DNA of 46,701 nucleotides from a virus (lineage: Duplodnaviria > Heunggongvirae > Uroviricota > Caudoviricetes). Shown here in pieces: positions 5,018 to 40,131 of the stretch. The position numbers were made by a program, and so were the translations under genes. The stretch lies in IMG/VR virus record IMGVR_UViG_3300045988_115807. One strand, written 5' to 3'. The notes below the pieces were generated by a model. That model worked only from the letters and a program-made list of their open reading frames with translations, was not told the origin of the DNA and did not search any database. Numbering within the stretch: position 1 is the first letter of the stretch; the number at the start of each line of letters is the position of its first letter.

Positions 5018-7589
5018 ACCGGTAGGCGATCTGGTCGTTGATTTAAGTCTGGATGCGGCCAGATTTGACGAGCAGATGGCCAGAGTCAGGCGTCATTTTT
5101 CCGGTACGGAAAGTGATGCGAAAAAAACAGCGGCAGTCGTTGAACAGTCGCTGAGCCGACAGGCGCTGGCTGCACAGAAAGCGGGGATTTCCGTCGGGCA
5201 GTATAAAGCCGCCATGCGTATGCTGCCTGCGCAGTTCACCGACGTGGCCACACAGCTTGCAGGGGGGCAGAATCCGTGGCTGATCCTGCTGCAACAGGGT
5301 GGTCAGGTGAAGGACTCCTTCGGCGGGATGATCCCCATGTTCAGGGGGCTTGCCGGTGCGATCACCCTGCCGATGGTGGGTATCACTTCGCTGGCGGTGG
5401 CGACCGGTGCGCTGGCGTATGCCTGGTATCAGGGTGACTCAACCCTGTCTAATTTCAACAAAACGCTGGTCCTTTCCGGTAATCAGGCGGGACTGACGGC
5501 AGATCGTATGCTGGTCCTGTCCAGAGCAGGGCAGGCGGCAGGGCTGACGTTTAACCAGACCAGCGAGTCACTGACGGCGCTGGTGAATGCCGGTGTGCGT
5601 GGTGGTGAGCAGTTTGAGGCAATCAGCCAGAGTGTGGCGCGTTTCTCCTCTGCATCCGGCGTGGAGGTGGACAAGGTCGCTGAAGCCTTCGGGAAGCTGA
5701 CCACTGACCCGACGTCGGGGTTGACGGCGATGGCGCGCCAGTTCCATAACGTGACGGCGGAACAGATTGCGTATGTTGCTCAGTTGCAGCGTTCCGGCGA
5801 TGGGGCCGGGGCATTGCAGGCGGCGAACGAGGCCGCAACGAAAGGGTTTGATGACCAGACCCGTAAACTGAAAGATAACATGGGTACGCTGGAGACCTGG
5901 GCAGACAAGACTGCACAGGCATTCAAATCCATGTGGGATGCGGTGCTGGATATTGGCCGCCCGGACTCCTCTGCAGATATGCTCGCCAAAGCTGAAAAGG
6001 CTTTTGATGAAGCGGATAAAAAATGGCAGTGGTATCAGAGCCGAAGCCACCGGCGCGGTAAAACTTCAGCATTTCTTGCCAATCTCCGGGGGGCATGGGA
6101 GAAGAGAGAGAATGCGCGACTTGGGCTTTCAGCCGCCACGTTGCAGGCAGATCTTGAAAAGGCCAGTGAGATGGCAGCAAAAGATCGGGCCGAGTCTGAG
6201 GCATCACGGCTGAAATATACCGAAGAGGCGCAGAAGGCTTACGAACGGCTGCAGACGCCGCTGGAGAAATATACCGCCCGTCAGGAAGAACTGAACAAGG
6301 CACTGAAAGACGGGAAAATCCTGCAGGCGGATTACAACACGCTGATGGCGGCGGCGAAAAAGGATTATGAAGCGACGCTGAAAAAGCCGAAACAGTCCGG
6401 CGTGAAGGTGTCTGCGGGCGATCGTCAGGAAGACAGTGCTCATGCTGCCCTGCTGACGCTTCAGGCAGAACTCCGGACGCTGGAGAAGCATGCCGGAGCG
6501 AATGAGAAAATCAGCCAGCAGCGCCGGGATTTGTGGAAGGCGGAGAGTCAGTTCGCGGTACTGGAGGAGGCGGCGCAACGTCGCCAGCTGTCTGCACAGG
6601 AGAAATCCCTGCTGGCGCATAAAGATGAGACGCTGGAGTACAAACGCCAGCTGGCTGCACTTGGCGACAAGGTTACGTATCAGGAGCGCCTGAACGCGCT
6701 GGCGCAGCAGGCGGATAAATTCGCACAGCAGCAACGGGCAAAACGGGCCGCCATTGATGCGAAAAGCCGGGGGCTGACTGACCGGCAGGCAGAACGGGAA
6801 GCCACGGAACAGCGCCTGAAGGAACAGTATGGCGATAATCCGCTGGCGCTGAATAACGTCATGTCAGAGCAGAAAAAGACCTGGGCGGCTGAAGACCAGC
6901 TTCGCGGGAGCTGGATGGCAGGCCTGAAATCCGGCTGGAGTGAGTGGAAAGAGAGCGCCACGGACAGCATGTCGCAGGTAAAAAGTGCAGCCACGCAGAC
7001 CTTTGATGGTATTGCACAGAATATGGCGGCGATGCTGACCGGCAGTGAGCAGAACTGGCGCAGCTTCACCCGCTCCGTGCTGTCCATGATGACAGAAATT
7101 CTGCTTAAGCAGGCAATGGTGGGGATTGTCGGGAGTATCGGCAGCGCCATTGGCGGGGCTGTTGGTGGCGGCGCATCCGCGTCAGGCGGTACAGCCATTC
7201 AGGCCGCTGCGGCGAAATTCCATTTTGCAACCGGAGGATTTACGGGAACCGGCGGCAAATATGAGCCAGCGGGGATTGTTCACCGTGGTGAATTTGTCTT
7301 CACGAAGGAGGCAACCAGCCGGATTGGCGTGGGAAATCTCTACCGGCTGATGCGCGGCTATGCGGAAGGTGGTTATGTGGGCGGTGCCGGAAGTCCGGCG
7401 CAGATGCGGCGGGCGGAAGGCATTAATTTTAATCAGAACAATCACGTGGTGATTCAGAACGACGGTACGAACGGGCAGATAGGTCCGGCTGCTCTGAAGG
7501 CGGTGTATGACATGGCCCGCAAGGGTGCCCGTGATGAAATTCAGACACAGATGCGTGATGGTGGCCTGTTCTCCGGAGGTGGACGATGA
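5010..7589 (+). CDS. H: tail tape measure protein H
   Basis: 859-aa ORF; N-terminus MAEPVGDLVVDLSLDAARFDEQMARVRRHF matches lambda gpH; position between T and M. Confidence 0.95.
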   Translation: MAEPVGDLVVDLSLDAARFDEQMARVRRHFSGTESDAKKTAAVVEQSLSRQALAAQKAGISVGQYKAAMRMLPAQFTDVATQLAGGQNPWLILLQQGGQVKDSFGGMIPMFRGLAGAITLPMVGITSLAVATGALAYAWYQGDSTLSNFNKTLVLSGNQAGLTADRMLVLSRAGQAAGLTFNQTSESLTALVNAGVRGGEQFEAISQSVARFSSASGVEVDKVAEAFGKLTTDPTSGLTAMARQFHNVTAEQIAYVAQLQRSGDGAGALQAANEAATKGFDDQTRKLKDNMGTLETWADKTAQAFKSMWDAVLDIGRPDSSADMLAKAEKAFDEADKKWQWYQSRSHRRGKTSAFLANLRGAWEKRENARLGLSAATLQADLEKASEMAAKDRAESEASRLKYTEEAQKAYERLQTPLEKYTARQEELNKALKDGKILQADYNTLMAAAKKDYEATLKKPKQSGVKVSAGDRQEDSAHAALLTLQAELRTLEKHAGANEKISQQRRDLWKAESQFAVLEEAAQRRQLSAQEKSLLAHKDETLEYKRQLAALGDKVTYQERLNALAQQADKFAQQQRAKRAAIDAKSRGLTDRQAEREATEQRLKEQYGDNPLALNNVMSEQKKTWAAEDQLRGSWMAGLKSGWSEWKESATDSMSQVKSAATQTFDGIAQNMAAMLTGSEQNWRSFTRSVLSMMTEILLKQAMVGIVGSIGSAIGGAVGGGASASGGTAIQAAAAKFHFATGGFTGTGGKYEPAGIVHRGEFVFTKEATSRIGVGNLYRLMRGYAEGGYVGGAGSPAQMRRAEGINFNQNNHVVIQNDGTNGQIGPAALKAVYDMARKGARDEIQTQMRDGGLFSGGGR

Positions 7590-21191: not shown

Positions 21192-23093
21192 ATGAGCAAA
21201 GTAAAAATCGGTGAATTAATAAACTCACTTGTTAGCGATGTTGAGTCAATAGATAACTCTGACCGTCCTCAAGGGGAGAAAACAAAAAAAATAAAGGCTG
21301 TTGCATTAAAATTTAAAAATGCATTATTTAATGACAAGCGAAAGTTTAGGGGGAAAGGATTAGAAAAAAGAATTACAGCCAACACATTCAATGCCTATAT
21401 GAGCAGGGCCAGAAAACGGTTTGATGATAAACTTCATCATAGCTTTGAAAAAAATATACATCGCCTATCTGAAAAGTATCCTTTATATAATGAGGAGCTA
21501 TTGTCATGGCTTTCTCTACCTGCTGCCGATATTCGCCAGAGAATGTCAGCTTTACAGGCAAAATTAAAATTAATTCTCCCTCTATCAGAAGATTTATCTA
21601 ATATCAGAATTGGCGATAACAAAAGTCATAATAAGTTATTGAAATTATCAAATAAATATAAAGAGTGGCAATTCGCCATTTCTGATTTAACTAGCGATAA
21701 CTGGAAAGATAAGCGCGATTATTTATATAAATTACTACAGCAAGGATCTGCCTTACTTGAGGAGTTGAATCAGCTAAAAGTTAACCATGAGATTCTCTAT
21801 CATCTTCAACTAAGCCCTGCCGAACGTGCATCTATCCAGCAACGATGGGCGGACGTTCTGCACAATAAGAAACGTAACGTGGTGGTCATTGATTACCCTA
21901 AATATATGCAAGCTATTTACGATATTATAAATAGCCCTGCTACATTAAATAATCTAAACACTCGTTCAGGTATGGCTCCTTTGGCATTTGCACTTGCTGC
22001 ATTGTCAGGAAGACGAATGATTGAGATTATGTATCAAGGTACATTTACTGTTTCTGGTAAGTATACCGTTGATTTTTTAGGCCAAGCTAAAAAAAGAACT
22101 TCTGATAATATAACCAGAAAAATATATACATTATGCGAAGCAAAAACATTTGTTTATTTAATAAATGTACTTCGCTCATGCCCAGCAGCATCTGATTTTG
22201 ATGATGTCGTTAAAGGTTATGGAGATAACGACACACGCTCTGAAAACGGACGTATTAATGCCATATTAGCAAAGGCTTTTAACCCGTGGGTTAAATCATT
22301 TTTTAAAGATGACCGCCGTGTTTATAAAGATAGTCGTGCTATTTATGCCCGTATTGCGTATGAAATGTTTTTCCGCGTAGATCCTCGTTGGAAAAACGTA
22401 GATGAAGATGTTTTCTTTATGGAAATTTTAGGCCATGACGATGAAAACACTCAATTACACTATAAGCAATTCAAGCTGGCCAACTTCTCAAAGACATGGA
22501 GGCCAAATACTGGAAACGAAAATACCAGGCTGGAAGCATTGCAGCAGCTTGATGACGAAATGCCTGGATTCGCCAGAGGAGATGCCGGGGTTCGTCTGCA
22601 TAACACAGTTAAGCAGCTGGTAGAGCAGGACCCCTCTATAAAAATCACGAACAGCACTCTAAGAGCGTTCAAATTTAGCCCAACAATGATTAGTCGATAC
22701 CTGGAATTTGCTGCTGATGCTCTGGGGCAATTTGTTGGCGAAAACGGACAATGGCAACTGAAAATAGATACTCCAGAAATCGTTATGCCTGACGAAGAAG
22801 AACTGGAAGCAATACCTGAACTGGCGGATGAATTATCAGAGGATGACGATCTGGATGACGACGAAATTGAGATAGAGGAAGAGGAAGAGGAAGAGGAAGA
22901 TAGCGTAGAAGAACAGCAACCGCCTGCACCTTCTTCGCCTGTATCTAAGCCGGTATTTAAGCCGGTGAGAAATATTGGTGATGGCTCATACGTTGTTGAG
23001 TTTCATTATAATGGCCAGAATTATGCGTGGTCCGGCAGTGCAAACAGCCCCATGTCAGCAATGCAGTTAGCATGGCTGACATATTTCGGTTAA
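21192..23093 (+). CDS. telN: protelomerase TelN (telomere resolvase)
   Basis: 633 aa; MSKVKIGELINSLVSDVESIDNSDRPQGEKTKKIKA...RSGMAPLAFALAALSGRRMIEIM...HDDENTQLHYKQFKLANF... matches N15 TelN from memory; acidic Glu/Asp-rich C-terminal stretch. Confidence 0.95.
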   Translation: MSKVKIGELINSLVSDVESIDNSDRPQGEKTKKIKAVALKFKNALFNDKRKFRGKGLEKRITANTFNAYMSRARKRFDDKLHHSFEKNIHRLSEKYPLYNEELLSWLSLPAADIRQRMSALQAKLKLILPLSEDLSNIRIGDNKSHNKLLKLSNKYKEWQFAISDLTSDNWKDKRDYLYKLLQQGSALLEELNQLKVNHEILYHLQLSPAERASIQQRWADVLHNKKRNVVVIDYPKYMQAIYDIINSPATLNNLNTRSGMAPLAFALAALSGRRMIEIMYQGTFTVSGKYTVDFLGQAKKRTSDNITRKIYTLCEAKTFVYLINVLRSCPAASDFDDVVKGYGDNDTRSENGRINAILAKAFNPWVKSFFKDDRRVYKDSRAIYARIAYEMFFRVDPRWKNVDEDVFFMEILGHDDENTQLHYKQFKLANFSKTWRPNTGNENTRLEALQQLDDEMPGFARGDAGVRLHNTVKQLVEQDPSIKITNSTLRAFKFSPTMISRYLEFAADALGQFVGENGQWQLKIDTPEIVMPDEEELEAIPELADELSEDDDLDDDEIEIEEEEEEEEDSVEEQQPPAPSSPVSKPVFKPVRNIGDGSYVVEFHYNGQNYAWSGSANSPMSAMQLAWLTYFG

Positions 23094-23264: not shown

Positions 23265-24047
23265 CTATTTATTGGTGATTTCTGCTGGCTTTAGCTGCGC
23301 GGATAACTGCTCAAGTTTTTGAACTGCCAGTTCAAAATGCGCGGGTAACGCCTTTTCCAGATCAGAGTTAATATCGGTGATGGGTAAATCACCACACGAC
23401 ATACTCCGCCTACCCCCACGAACAACATCACGCAACAACTCTCGTTCATACGTGCGCATGTTCCCCAATGCCGACTCAGCAGCCGTCAAAATCCGGCGCA
23501 GTTCTGCCGTAATTGCTGGCAAATCATCAACCGTTATGGGGTTCGGGGATGGATTACGACACGCCCGACGCAAAGCTAACCATACACCGCTAATCCAGGC
23601 ATTTCGGTACTGAAAACTTTGTGCTATATCGTTAATCAGCCCTCGCAGATACTCTTTCTGCCTCCAGTTCAACGGCTCCGCTGCTCGCATTGGCTCAGGC
23701 TCGATGTAAACGTACTCTCCATTTTTGCGAATAGAGGGCAAGACTTCGTTCGTTACCCATTTGCGAAACCGCCAAGCTGTTGTGCCTTGCTTCACCGCGT
23801 CACGGCAGCGGAGGATCAGGGTGTATAGACCTGACTCTGAAATAATATTTAGCTTTTGCTCTCCGCCAGGGGTGTAACTTAAAGTTACACCCTTTTCATC
23901 CTCATCCAGAGACATTAGCGCCTTCCGGGAATTAACGAGTCTTAAAGCATCACATACATCCTTAGCCACAAACCACGGCTCACCGTTAATCATCACTACA
24001 CGAACCTGATGCTCTTCCTGAAAGGAAAAGACTGCTAACGCGCTCAT
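23265..24047 (-). CDS. Bro-N domain antirepressor-like protein
   Basis: N-terminal ...VRVVMINGEPWFVAKDVCDALRLVNSRKALMSLDEDEKG... is typical of Bro-N/AntA phage antirepressor domains. Confidence 0.8.
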   Translation of the reverse strand: MSALAVFSFQEEHQVRVVMINGEPWFVAKDVCDALRLVNSRKALMSLDEDEKGVTLSYTPGGEQKLNIISESGLYTLILRCRDAVKQGTTAWRFRKWVTNEVLPSIRKNGEYVYIEPEPMRAAEPLNWRQKEYLRGLINDIAQSFQYRNAWISGVWLALRRACRNPSPNPITVDDLPAITAELRRILTAAESALGNMRTYERELLRDVVRGGRRSMSCGDLPITDINSDLEKALPAHFELAVQKLEQLSAQLKPAEITNK

Positions 24048-30874: not shown

Positions 30875-31471
30875 TCATCTACCCTCAACCATGAATGATT
30901 TGATCGTTCCGACTATTTGGTGAACAAATTCAAGATCGCTTTTCCTGAAGATGGCGCGTTGTGAATTTGTTCCGTCCAGATAGTAATTTTCATCATCAAA
31001 ACGGGCCAGGCGCTGGATGGTGATATTTCCTGCAGTATCACGAACCAGAACATCCTCGCCGGGAACCAGTTCCAGCGCAGAATCGACCAGGAGAAAATCG
31101 CCTGGCTGATAGTTTCCCTGCGCCAGATTGCTGATAGTTAACGCATAAACAGTATTGCGCTGGCTGATGAATGGCAGGAATCGCTCAGTATTTGGAACCT
31201 GTCCTGGCTTCCACTCTTCATCAGGTCCACTTTCAGTTGTGCCAATAACAGGAATGCGATCAGGGTCATATTCTGTCCCATACAGCACCCAATGCACTGG
31301 CTTGCGTAAGCACTTAGCCAGGGCAATACCTATCTCCAGTGACGGCATTACGTCGCCACGTTCTAAGTTTTGGACGCCTGCAATAGAGATATCGACAGCC
31401 TCAGCAACTTCTCGCAACGTCAGCTTCATCTCTAAACGGCGTGCTTTCAGTCGTTCGCCTCGTGTTTTCAT
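30875..31471 (-). CDS. cB: prophage repressor CB (HTH N-terminus, CI/LexA-like C-terminal domain)
   Basis: MKTRGERLKARRLEMKLTLREVAEAVDISIAGVQNLERGDVMPS... HTH_XRE-type N-terminus; divergent from cro; position as N15 cB. Confidence 0.85.
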   Translation of the reverse strand: MKTRGERLKARRLEMKLTLREVAEAVDISIAGVQNLERGDVMPSLEIGIALAKCLRKPVHWVLYGTEYDPDRIPVIGTTESGPDEEWKPGQVPNTERFLPFISQRNTVYALTISNLAQGNYQPGDFLLVDSALELVPGEDVLVRDTAGNITIQRLARFDDENYYLDGTNSQRAIFRKSDLEFVHQIVGTIKSFMVEGR

Positions 31472-31493: not shown

Positions 31494-31535
31494 TTATAGC
31501 TGGCTATAAAATTTATTTATTATAGCTGGCTTTAA
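31494..31535. promoter_or_regulatory. candidate CB operators in the cB-cro divergent promoter region
   Basis: TTATAGCTGGCTATAA (31494-31509) and TTATAGCTGGCTTTAA (31520-31535), 26 bp apart; a TATAAT at 31551-31556 lies 6 nt before the second cro ATG. Confidence 0.5.
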
Positions 31536-35745: not shown

Positions 35746-35901
35746 ATGGACAAAAAGGCATTGCTTTTTGAAATGATACGAAAACGGAGCGAAAAGAGCT
35801 TTTCTGATGGTGGTGATGGGCTTTTGAAAGTGGTTGGGCGAGGCGTAGGAAGGGAACATAAGTATCAGACTACAAAGATATTTAACCAGTTAATCCATTG
35901 A
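35746..35901 (+). CDS. small ORF (51 aa)
   Basis: GGAGGG RBS 6 nt upstream; MDKKALLFEMIRKRSEKSFSDGGDG...; below ORF-track cutoff. Confidence 0.3.
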   Translation: MDKKALLFEMIRKRSEKSFSDGGDGLLKVVGRGVGREHKYQTTKIFNQLIH

Positions 35902-35927
35902 AAGTTGGCTATAAAATTTGAGTTTTA

Positions 35928-35947
35928 CCCTGTAATTTTATACAGTA
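35928..35947. promoter_or_regulatory. LexA (SOS) box
   Basis: CCCTGTAATTTTATACAGTA fits the CTGT-N8-ACAG consensus (taCTGTatatatatACAGta), with an AT-rich spacer and flanking TA. Confidence 0.65.
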
Positions 35948-35969
35948 TCAAATAACCTTTTTTAATTAA

Positions 35970-36188
35970 ATGGTATTAGATTCAATGACTGAAGCACCTG
36001 TATCAACTCTTGAAGAACTCGGATCAAACCTAAAAGACATCGACGCCGTTTTGGATCTGGTTAGCGTTGCTCTGGCTTCTCCAGAAGCCAGCTTGCATCT
36101 TGGCGAGATTTCACGACTTGTTAGTATGTCGCGGGAGATTGCTCAGAATTGCCAACAAGTTATTGCTGTTGAGTGTTTGCATCATTGA
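35970..36188 (+). CDS. small protein downstream of the LexA box; candidate SOS-inducible antirepressor (AntC-like by position)
   Basis: 72-aa acidic ORF; the promoter region upstream carries the LexA box and a TTGGCTATAAAATTT half-site also present in the cB-cro operator. Confidence 0.45.
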   Translation: MVLDSMTEAPVSTLEELGSNLKDIDAVLDLVSVALASPEASLHLGEISRLVSMSREIAQNCQQVIAVECLHH

Positions 36189-36231
36189 TACACACCCCGC
36201 CCTTCTGGACGGGGTAGCGAAAAGGGTCTAA

Positions 36232-36519
36232 TCAATAGACGGCATTAATATTAATCGTTGCACCGCATGCTTGGGCATATTTTGATAAAGTTTTCATGCT
36301 TGCCCCTAAAGGATTGCTTTCCAGGCGGCTGATAGCTGACGGGCGCAATCCCATTCGTTCAGCCAGAGCTGACTTCGTTAAACCTGCTCTTTCCCTCATT
36401 TCGTATAACATTTCGACCATCTCCAGCTCTTTATCGGCCTCTTCATATCCTTTGATGGCTTCTGGAGTGTTGAGAAGTTTTTCTTTTACTTCGTTAAACG
36501 GGATGCCTTTCGCTTTCAT
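36232..36519 (-). CDS. HTH (XRE-family) antitoxin, HigA-like
   Basis: ...RERAGLTKSALAERMGLRPSAISRLESN... HTH; start overlaps the toxin stop by 1 nt (TGATG). Confidence 0.7.
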   Translation of the reverse strand: MKAKGIPFNEVKEKLLNTPEAIKGYEEADKELEMVEMLYEMRERAGLTKSALAERMGLRPSAISRLESNPLGASMKTLSKYAQACGATININAVY

Positions 36520-36830
36520 CAGTTCATCTCCTTCAGGCGAGTTCTGGCGATTTCGATAGCCTTCACCGGTGTTTTCTGTGTCTTTTTTACAAATGCATGC
36601 AATAGATAAATTTCGTTACCAGTCGCGTAGGCGTACAGCGTTCTTGCGATGTTTTTATCCCCTACTCGTAGTTCAAAAAGCCCTCCACCTATTACACGGC
36701 TATGGGGCATCTTCAGTTTGTTGCCTTCCTTCTCCAGTCGCTCAATTAATCTGGTCATGCGACCTCGCAAATCATCTGGTAGTTCAAGCAGTTCATCCAG
36801 TGCTGCAGGGTGGGTTATCACGTTAAACAT
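36519..36830 (-). CDS. RelE/ParE-superfamily toxin, HigB/Gp49-like
   Basis: 103 aa; toxin-first operon order with a downstream HTH antitoxin, typical of HigBA / Gp49-like modules. Confidence 0.7.
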   Translation of the reverse strand: MFNVITHPAALDELLELPDDLRGRMTRLIERLEKEGNKLKMPHSRVIGGGLFELRVGDKNIARTLYAYATGNEIYLLHAFVKKTQKTPVKAIEIARTRLKEMN

Positions 36831-36888
36831 ATTATAGCCTCCATAGCCATAAAATACACCAAAACAAGAAAAAAGCGCAAATTAAAAA

Positions 36889-36906
36889 TTTCACTAAAAA
36901 GTGAAA
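36889..36906. promoter_or_regulatory. inverted repeat in the toxin-antitoxin promoter region (candidate operator)
   Basis: TTTCAC-TAAAAA-GTGAAA, about 60 bp upstream of the toxin start. Confidence 0.35.
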
Positions 36907-36995
36907 AATAACACTGGATGTGTTCGTTTGGCAGAGTTACAGTTCGTGTCATTGAGGGGCAATAACCCACTAACTATATGAATTTGGAGGATATT

Positions 36996-39170: not shown

Positions 39171-39667
39171 TGCAGTCATCATTACGCAAAGCTGTCGCAA
39201 CTGCTATTGGTGGCGGGGCTATTGCCATAGCATCTGTGCTCATCTCTGGTCCGAGCGGCAACGATGGTCTGGAAGGTGTGAGACATAACCCCTACAAAGA
39301 CATCGTTGGTGTATGGACTGTATGTTACGGGCATACAGGAAAAGACATTATGCTCGGTAAAACGTATACCGAAGCAGAATGCAAAGCTCTCCTGAATAAA
39401 GACCTTGCTACTGTCGCCAGACAAATTAACCCGTACATCAAAGTCGATATACCGGAAACAACGCGTGGTGCTCTTTACTCGTTCGTTTACAACGTGGGTG
39501 CAGGCAATTTCAGAACATCGACACTTCTTCGCAAAATCAACCAGGGCGATATCAAAGGTGCATGTGATCAACTACGTCGCTGGACATATGCTGGCGGCAA
39601 GCAATGGAAAGGGCTGATGACTCGCCGTGAGATTGAGCGTGAAGTCTGTTTGTGGGGGCAGCAATGA
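39167..39667 (+). CDS. SAR endolysin (T4-type lysozyme, GH24)
   Basis: N-terminal signal-anchor-release-like segment [20 protein letters not shown] followed by lysozyme-like domain (…VCYGHTG…); start overlaps the holin stop. Confidence 0.85.
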
Positions 39668-40131
39668 GCAGAGTAACCGCAATTATTTCCGCACTGGTTA
39701 TCTGCATCATCGTCTGCCTGTCGTGGGCTGTTAATCATTACCGTGATAACGCCATCGCCTACAAAGAACAGCGTGATAAAAAAGTCAGTGAGCTGAAGCA
39801 GGCGACCGCCACCATCGCTGACATGCAGCAGCGTCAGCGTGATGTTGCTGCGCTCGATGCAAAATACACGAAGGAGTTGGCTGATGCGAAAGCTGAAAAT
39901 GATGCTCTTCGGCGCAAGCTTGATAATGGTGGTCGGGTGCTCGTCAAAGGAAAATGCTCTGTGCCATCCTCAGCCGAAACCTCCAGCGCCTCCGGCATGG
40001 GCAATGATGCCACCGTCGAACTCTCTCCAGTTGCTGGACGAAACGTTCTCGGTATCCGGGACGGAATCATCAGAGACCAGACAGCACTGAGAACGCTTCA
40101 GGAATACATCAAGACGCAATGCCCGAATTAA
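39664..40131 (+). CDS. i-spanin Rz
   Basis: [24 protein letters not shown]... N-terminal TM anchor followed by coiled-coil; position after endolysin. Confidence 0.8.
39884..40090 (+). CDS. o-spanin Rz1 (lipoprotein embedded in the +1 frame of Rz)
   Basis: [22 protein letters not shown]... lipobox VVGC followed by Pro-rich [16 protein letters not shown], like lambda Rz1. Confidence 0.7.

Follow-up and report, generated by a model that had tools for sequence, protein, structure and literature searches.

A LexA box and a small acidic gene as the probable antC antirepressor module of an N15-like plasmid-prophage

The window analysed here, a 46,701-nucleotide stretch of viral DNA (IMG/VR record IMGVR_UViG_3300045988_115807), very probably carries the antC module of an N15-like plasmid-prophage, in which a LexA-controlled antirepressor would inactivate the non-cleavable repressor CB. 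The initial annotation had proposed an N15-style antirepressor under LexA control at this locus; the proposal is supported by a homologous and syntenic N15 ORF with a LexA box of its own, by the window's CB and by the N15 literature.

The predicted LexA (SOS) box, CCCTGTAATTTTATACAGTA, lies at 35928..35947 (no strand assigned), with its CTGT-N8-ACAG core at 35930-35945. An SOS operator was taken to be a 20-bp palindrome of the form TACTGT-(AT)4-ACAGTA with an AT-rich spacer, placed on a promoter, and CCCTGTAATTTTATACAGTA appears to be such a site: CTGT and ACAG are both intact and 8 bp apart, the spacer is all A/T, and 15/20 positions agree with TACTGTATATATATACAGTA. The exact CTGT-N8-ACAG pattern occurs twice in the window (0.47 expected), and 10/100 shuffles hold at least two copies; the bare pattern alone is weak evidence for a LexA site. 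Because the pattern is not rare by chance, LexA-like sites across the window were ranked by a symmetrised weight matrix, an approximate one built on 21 published E. coli SOS boxes. CCCTGTAATTTTATACAGTA scored 19.9 bits, where the reference boxes (n=21) span 13-27 bits, and it led the second-ranked LexA-like site in the window (11.4 bits) by ~8.4 bits. A score of 19.9 bits was attained anywhere in 2/300 first-order Markov shuffles of the whole window. With its core intact and the top score in the window, the site bears out the good match to the CTGT-N8-ACAG consensus that had been claimed for it. The second CTGT-N8-ACAG, at 7080, was rejected as a LexA site: its score is only 6.9 bits, its spacer contains GC, and an ORF of 859 aa encloses it.

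The box is conserved well beyond the window. Our comparative set (n=60 loci) consisted of the window, 7 phage records, 50 IMG/VR loci and 2 bacterial genomes. All 60, representing 21 distinct upstream sequences, have a LexA box of 18-26 bits that lies 54-58 nt upstream of a conserved ATG, and the clades that keep the box have diverged flanks and coding sequences down to 51-59% protein identity. Homologous upstream regions were also aligned across E. coli, Enterobacter and Klebsiella elements (20 distinct sequences, 71% mean identity per column). The invariant blocks in this alignment are exactly TTTG, TGT, TATACAGTA, GGTA and ATG (35985). TTTG, at 35917-35920, is thus unchanged in 20 diverged regions, and within the box, where 14/20 positions are invariant across clades, the constant blocks are TGT and TATACAGTA. 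Read from sequence, the pattern of invariant blocks looks like the footprint expected of a LexA-occluded promoter.

The putative promoter consists of a -35 hexamer, TTGAGT (35918..35923, + strand), 17 bp upstream of a -10 hexamer, TACAGT (35941..35946, + strand), which lies within the right half of the LexA box and is invariant in 20/20 upstream regions. The initial annotation had the box overlapping promoter-like hexamers, and this arrangement was found, with the -10 in the box. The match to the sigma-70 consensus is weak (8/12 positions), below the 9/12 threshold of our promoter scan, and the promoter is therefore absent from the scan list. Directly after TACAGT, TATCAA (35946-35951) may serve as an alternative -10, and the same position reads TATAAT in phiKO2; either hexamer would be overlapped by the box.

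Downstream of the promoter, a Shine-Dalgarno-like GGTA (35972..35975, + strand), whose role is presumed, is invariant and lies 9 nt before the conserved ATG. It is a poor match and overlaps a first ATG (35970) that is not conserved, reading ATG-GTA-TGA in the YDC107_1 clade and ACG or CTG in Klebsiella phages. A 72-aa reading from ATG 35970 was rejected, as in sister clades a stop codon follows or the ATG is missing. The ATG at 35985 is invariant and was chosen by NCBI PGAP in a 99.9%-identical plasmid, and the product is therefore most likely a protein of 67 aa starting at 35985. The 72-aa acidic ORF described initially does exist (35970-36188; 11 D+E against 3 K+R, pI 4.4) and its acidity stands; it is the start that most likely has to move.

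The antC-like coding sequence, at 35985..36188 (+ strand), accordingly spans 67 codons plus stop and specifies an acidic protein (pI 4.5) predicted to form a helical hairpin. All 31 distinct variants, 67-71 aa long, keep the reading frame open, dN/dS is 0.16-0.37, and substitutions fall mostly at third codon positions. It is a genuine gene under purifying selection. An AlphaFold2 model of the 67-aa protein (mean pLDDT 86) places helices at residues 4-30 and 39-66 in a two-helix hairpin. Across the aligned family 21 residues never vary, among them those of D-x-D-A-x-L-D and S-x-E-A-S-L-H, and the invariant SPEASLH motif sits within and beside the inter-helix loop of the model.

The family to which this protein belongs is little described. 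The 67-aa protein matches PHROG 6301 (E=3.6e-36) and, weakly, PHROG 10889, labelled 'anti-repressor' (E=1.4e-6); the latter agrees with an antC identity. No match was found in Pfam (E<=0.01), NCBIfam, PADLOC or the PDB sequences, and no fold in the viral and PDB libraries matched the AlphaFold2 model at E<=0.001, generic helical hairpins being all that was returned. An exhaustive HMMER search of 1.84 billion representative proteins yielded 4 matches and no distant annotated relative, and the family is therefore narrow. By tblastn the protein has matches in 13 phage records, and all those inspected are N15-like, N15 included. At least 1000 E. coli and Shigella contigs carry the exact window protein. 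None of the family members looked up in public databases carries the name AntC; they appear as hypothetical or uncharacterised proteins, or as 'Gp47' in phiKO2.

The tblastn match in N15 is an ORF at 39604-39807 (57% identity over 94% of the query, E=2e-17). In the N15 record NC_001901 the antC-type ORF (39604-39831) is unannotated. Gene order is the same in N15 and the window (gp46, gp47, the ORF, convergent gp48/gp49, gp50, gp51), and across N15, phiKO2, YDC107_1 and the 50 IMG/VR loci the ORF follows gp46/gp47 and lies outside immB. The small ORF thus occupies the same slot between gp47 and the gp48/gp49 pair, in keeping with the earlier remark that its position is consistent with the N15 mechanism. 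CTGTGTTTATATACAG precedes the N15 ORF at the same distance as the window's box precedes its own.

Strong LexA boxes number just two in N15. One, very strong at 25 bits, occupies 21658-21677 ahead of the umuD-like gene 26, and the other lies at 39562, ahead of the ORF at 39604. The window has no homologue of gene 26, and the antC box is therefore its only strong LexA box. In the N15 literature, antC is a locus apart from immA and immB, and under LexA control (PMC4488713, PMC3121763, PMC11652158). Full-text literature searches found no statement of the antC coordinates in N15. Mardanov and Ravin 2007 (J Bacteriol 189:6333) reportedly describe N15 antC as a LexA-repressed antirepressor acting on CB. 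N15 antC is probably the unannotated ORF at 39604, from that description and by elimination, as the other of the two strong boxes stands before the umuD-like gene 26.

The SOS promoter might be real and the small protein act otherwise, for example in modulation of RecA/LexA like DinI or in cell division, with the antirepressor encoded elsewhere, as by an immA-like antA/antB. A protein without a match in Pfam, NCBIfam, PADLOC or the PDB, and with the fold of a generic hairpin, would suit such a role, and the window's immA-like region does encode an Ant-like protein of 260 aa (23265-24047). However, that region has no LexA box, all other sites in the window scoring <=11.4 bits; the other strong box of N15 precedes a UmuD-like gene rather than an antirepressor; the literature holds antC to be LexA-controlled and apart from immA/immB (PMC4488713, PMC3121763); and the weak PHROG match points to an antirepressor. 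We consider this alternative very unlikely, and prefer an antC-type antirepressor.

The element itself is a relative of N15. Aligned blocks of N15 and the window show 68-77% DNA identity (73-77% save one block), and the window has homologues of the N15 genes for TelN, RepA, ParA/ParB, the terminase and the immA region. From these block identities and shared genes, the window is identified by sequence as an N15-like (Ravinvirus) linear plasmid-prophage rather than as N15. The initial annotation had drawn its parallel with N15, of which the phage, at about 73-77% identity, is a relative. The Ravinvirus phages YDC107_1 and PhiR46_1 are ~93% identical to the region around the antC-like locus, and several E. 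coli and E. fergusonii plasmids match the antC-like region at 99.8-99.9%. In the YDC107_1 record the antC-like locus is not at a position matching that in the window. In several cases a single IMG/VR contig holds the locus twice, in inverted orientation (locus pairs L063/L064, L088/L089, L099/L108, L100/L103 and L102/L107); this arrangement would be compatible with the assembly of linear plasmids with hairpin ends as head-to-head dimers.

The antirepressor presumably targets the prophage repressor encoded by cB (30875..31471, - strand), an HTH_3 protein 78% identical to N15 CB. Its C-terminal domain gives a Peptidase_S24 match below the Pfam cut-off. In an alignment with LexA and lambda CI, the window's CB has Gln where LexA has Lys156 and lambda CI has Lys192, an Ala-Gly cleavage site is missing, and the position of the catalytic Ser is ambiguous. 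With the catalytic Lys missing, another route of damage sensing would be needed. N15 CB has been reported to lack the Ser/Lys active site and the cleavage site (PMC4997575), and by experiment it is non-proteolytic and stays uncleaved on SOS induction (PMC10432266). The latter upholds the earlier statement that N15 is not induced through RecA-mediated repressor cleavage. By its sequence, the window's CB would fit a non-cleavable repressor in need of an antirepressor.

Two OR operators, TTATAGCTGGCTATAA and TTATAGCTGGCTTTAA, were located between cB and cro (31494..31535, no strand assigned) as 16-bp T-A-N10-T-A sites. TTATAGCTGGCTATAA is identical to an N15 OR operator and falls in a stretch that the N15 record marks as bound by CB. 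Sequence comparison gave no signal of co-variation between CB and AntC. The CBs compared are 77-100% identical, and the comparison is uninformative because near-identical CBs (99.5-100%) occur with two AntC types that are 78% identical to each other.

An operator-like sequence, TGAAAGTTGGCTATAA, lies close to the antC promoter at 35899-35914, where it runs from the upstream gene's stop codon to within 3 bp of the -35 hexamer. Its agreement with the OR operator TTATAGCTGGCTATAA extends to 13/16 positions, including 8/8 in the right half, which makes it the best match in the window outside OR. It is found in all loci of the window's clade and is missing from the YDC107_1 clade despite the same CB and operators there. 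Five N15 operator-like sequences, compared by eye, have three invariant bases in the left half, and two of these are missing from TGAAAGTTGGCTATAA. We did not accept TGAAAGTTGGCTATAA as an established CB operator, given the missing left-half bases and its absence from the YDC107_1 clade.

The gene upstream is the gp47 homologue (35746-35901), which has 51 aa in the window and 80 aa in YDC107_1 and PhiR46_1, owing to an in-frame deletion of 87 bp followed by a diverged stretch; these 87 bp are present in YDC107_1 and absent from the window. PGAP left the gp47 homologue unannotated in the 99.9%-identical plasmid. Our scan found no terminator-like site between the upstream genes and the ORF, and this, with the weak promoter hexamers and a CTGT-N8-ACAG pattern that is not rare by chance, is what could be said for a palindrome that is no working LexA site, the ORF being the last early rightward gene, read through from PR after CB had been inactivated by other means; yet such a reading is highly improbable given that 14/20 box positions and the distance to the ATG are fixed despite diverged flanks and coding sequence, that the score is in the range of genuine SOS boxes, and that a CB without the catalytic Lys needs another damage-sensing route (PMC10432266).

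At its 3' end antC converges on a gene pair (36232-36830, - strand) that encodes a Gp49/DUF891 (RelE-like) toxin and an HTH_3 antitoxin, homologues of N15 gp49/gp48, which form a tad-ata-type stabilisation module (PMC2701414). Between antC and the antitoxin gene is a GC-rich hairpin (36194..36215, no strand assigned), with predicted RNA folds of -14.1 kcal/mol (z -0.8) on the + strand and -24.9 kcal/mol (z -4.3) on the - strand. No U-run follows it on either strand. The hairpin is identical in YDC107_1 and PhiR46_1, with variable flanks. With no clear terminator for antC on the + strand, SOS-induced transcripts might enter the convergent tad-ata operon antisense. We see a slim chance that antC takes part in further regulation, either because CB may bind TGAAAGTTGGCTATAA beside its promoter, as a double lock or feedback loop, or because its transcripts may run antisense into tad-ata.

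Rfam gave no RNA family at the antC-like locus. In a 2-kb search, a sub-threshold RyhB match was seen at 36882-36953 (- strand; 26 bits, gathering score 55, E=0.04). The site, in the spacer upstream of the toxin gene, includes a terminator-like hairpin with a T-run behind it. Chance probably accounts for the match.

Together with the N15 literature, the locus suggests the following course of induction. In the lysogen, host LexA bound at 35928-35947 would cover the spacer and -10 of the sigma-70 promoter, so that the antC promoter would be shut. On DNA damage, active RecA would promote LexA self-cleavage, and the promoter would open. The antC transcript, with a leader of probably ~30 nt, would then be translated from ATG 35985 to give the 67-aa acidic helical hairpin. 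By analogy with N15, AntC would bind CB, which cannot cleave itself, so that CB would leave OR and OL; its removal would allow expression of cro, Q and repA, and lytic growth would follow. LexA control, the action against CB and the non-proteolytic nature of CB are taken from work on N15 (PMC4488713, PMC3121763, PMC11652158, PMC10432266, PMC4997575). For the window phage, we infer the binding of LexA, the start of transcription and the contact between AntC and CB.

The N15 mechanism has been established since 2007, and the window locus leaves the picture of prophage induction unchanged. Its value is in the annotation gap that it exposes: the gene is absent from the N15 reference record and the family is unnamed in the databases. 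N15-like plasmid-prophages are common in clinical Enterobacteriaceae, and since induction would go through LexA and AntC, SOS-inducing antibiotics are predicted to induce them. CB and one OR operator vary little within the group, and for this reason the AntC of one element probably acts also on related co-resident elements.

Among known systems the closest is N15 antC itself, which shares with the window a 57% identical protein, the position between gp47 and the tad-ata-type pair, the distance from box to ATG, the kind of CB and one OR operator. The two differ in the box spacer (AATTTTAT in the window, GTTTATAT in N15), and the C-terminal third of the window protein is unrelated in sequence to that of N15. 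N15 also has a strong bidirectional terminator, whereas the window has a weaker hairpin without a U-run. Gp47 of phiKO2 and the ORFs of Klebsiella N15-like phages (KpLi5, NAR688 and others) are alike in identity (~50%), in synteny and in a box 54-58 nt before the ATG. In phiKO2, however, the left half of the box reads ATGT, and both the -35 (TTGCCA) and the Shine-Dalgarno sequence (GGGTAGG) of the Klebsiella clade are better than those of the window.

More distant parallels are Tum of coliphage 186 and GfoA/GftA of the Salmonella Gifsy phages, each a small LexA-controlled protein encoded outside the immunity region that binds and inactivates a non-cleavable repressor (PMC3121763). Tum differs in its length of 146 aa and its DinI-like half (PMC3121763). 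A sequence relationship of the window's AntC to these proteins did not emerge from the Pfam search (E<=0.01), which gave no match of any kind and showed no DinI-like domain that would place the 67-aa protein with the Tum/DinI fusions. The antirepressors P22 Ant, P1 Ant1/2 and N15 immA AntA/AntB likewise act against a prophage repressor. Ant-type antirepressors are much larger proteins with Pfam domains of the Ant/Bro type. Unlike the antC-type gene, they are controlled by small antisense RNA or secondary repressors and not by LexA (PMC4488713, citing Ravin 1999).
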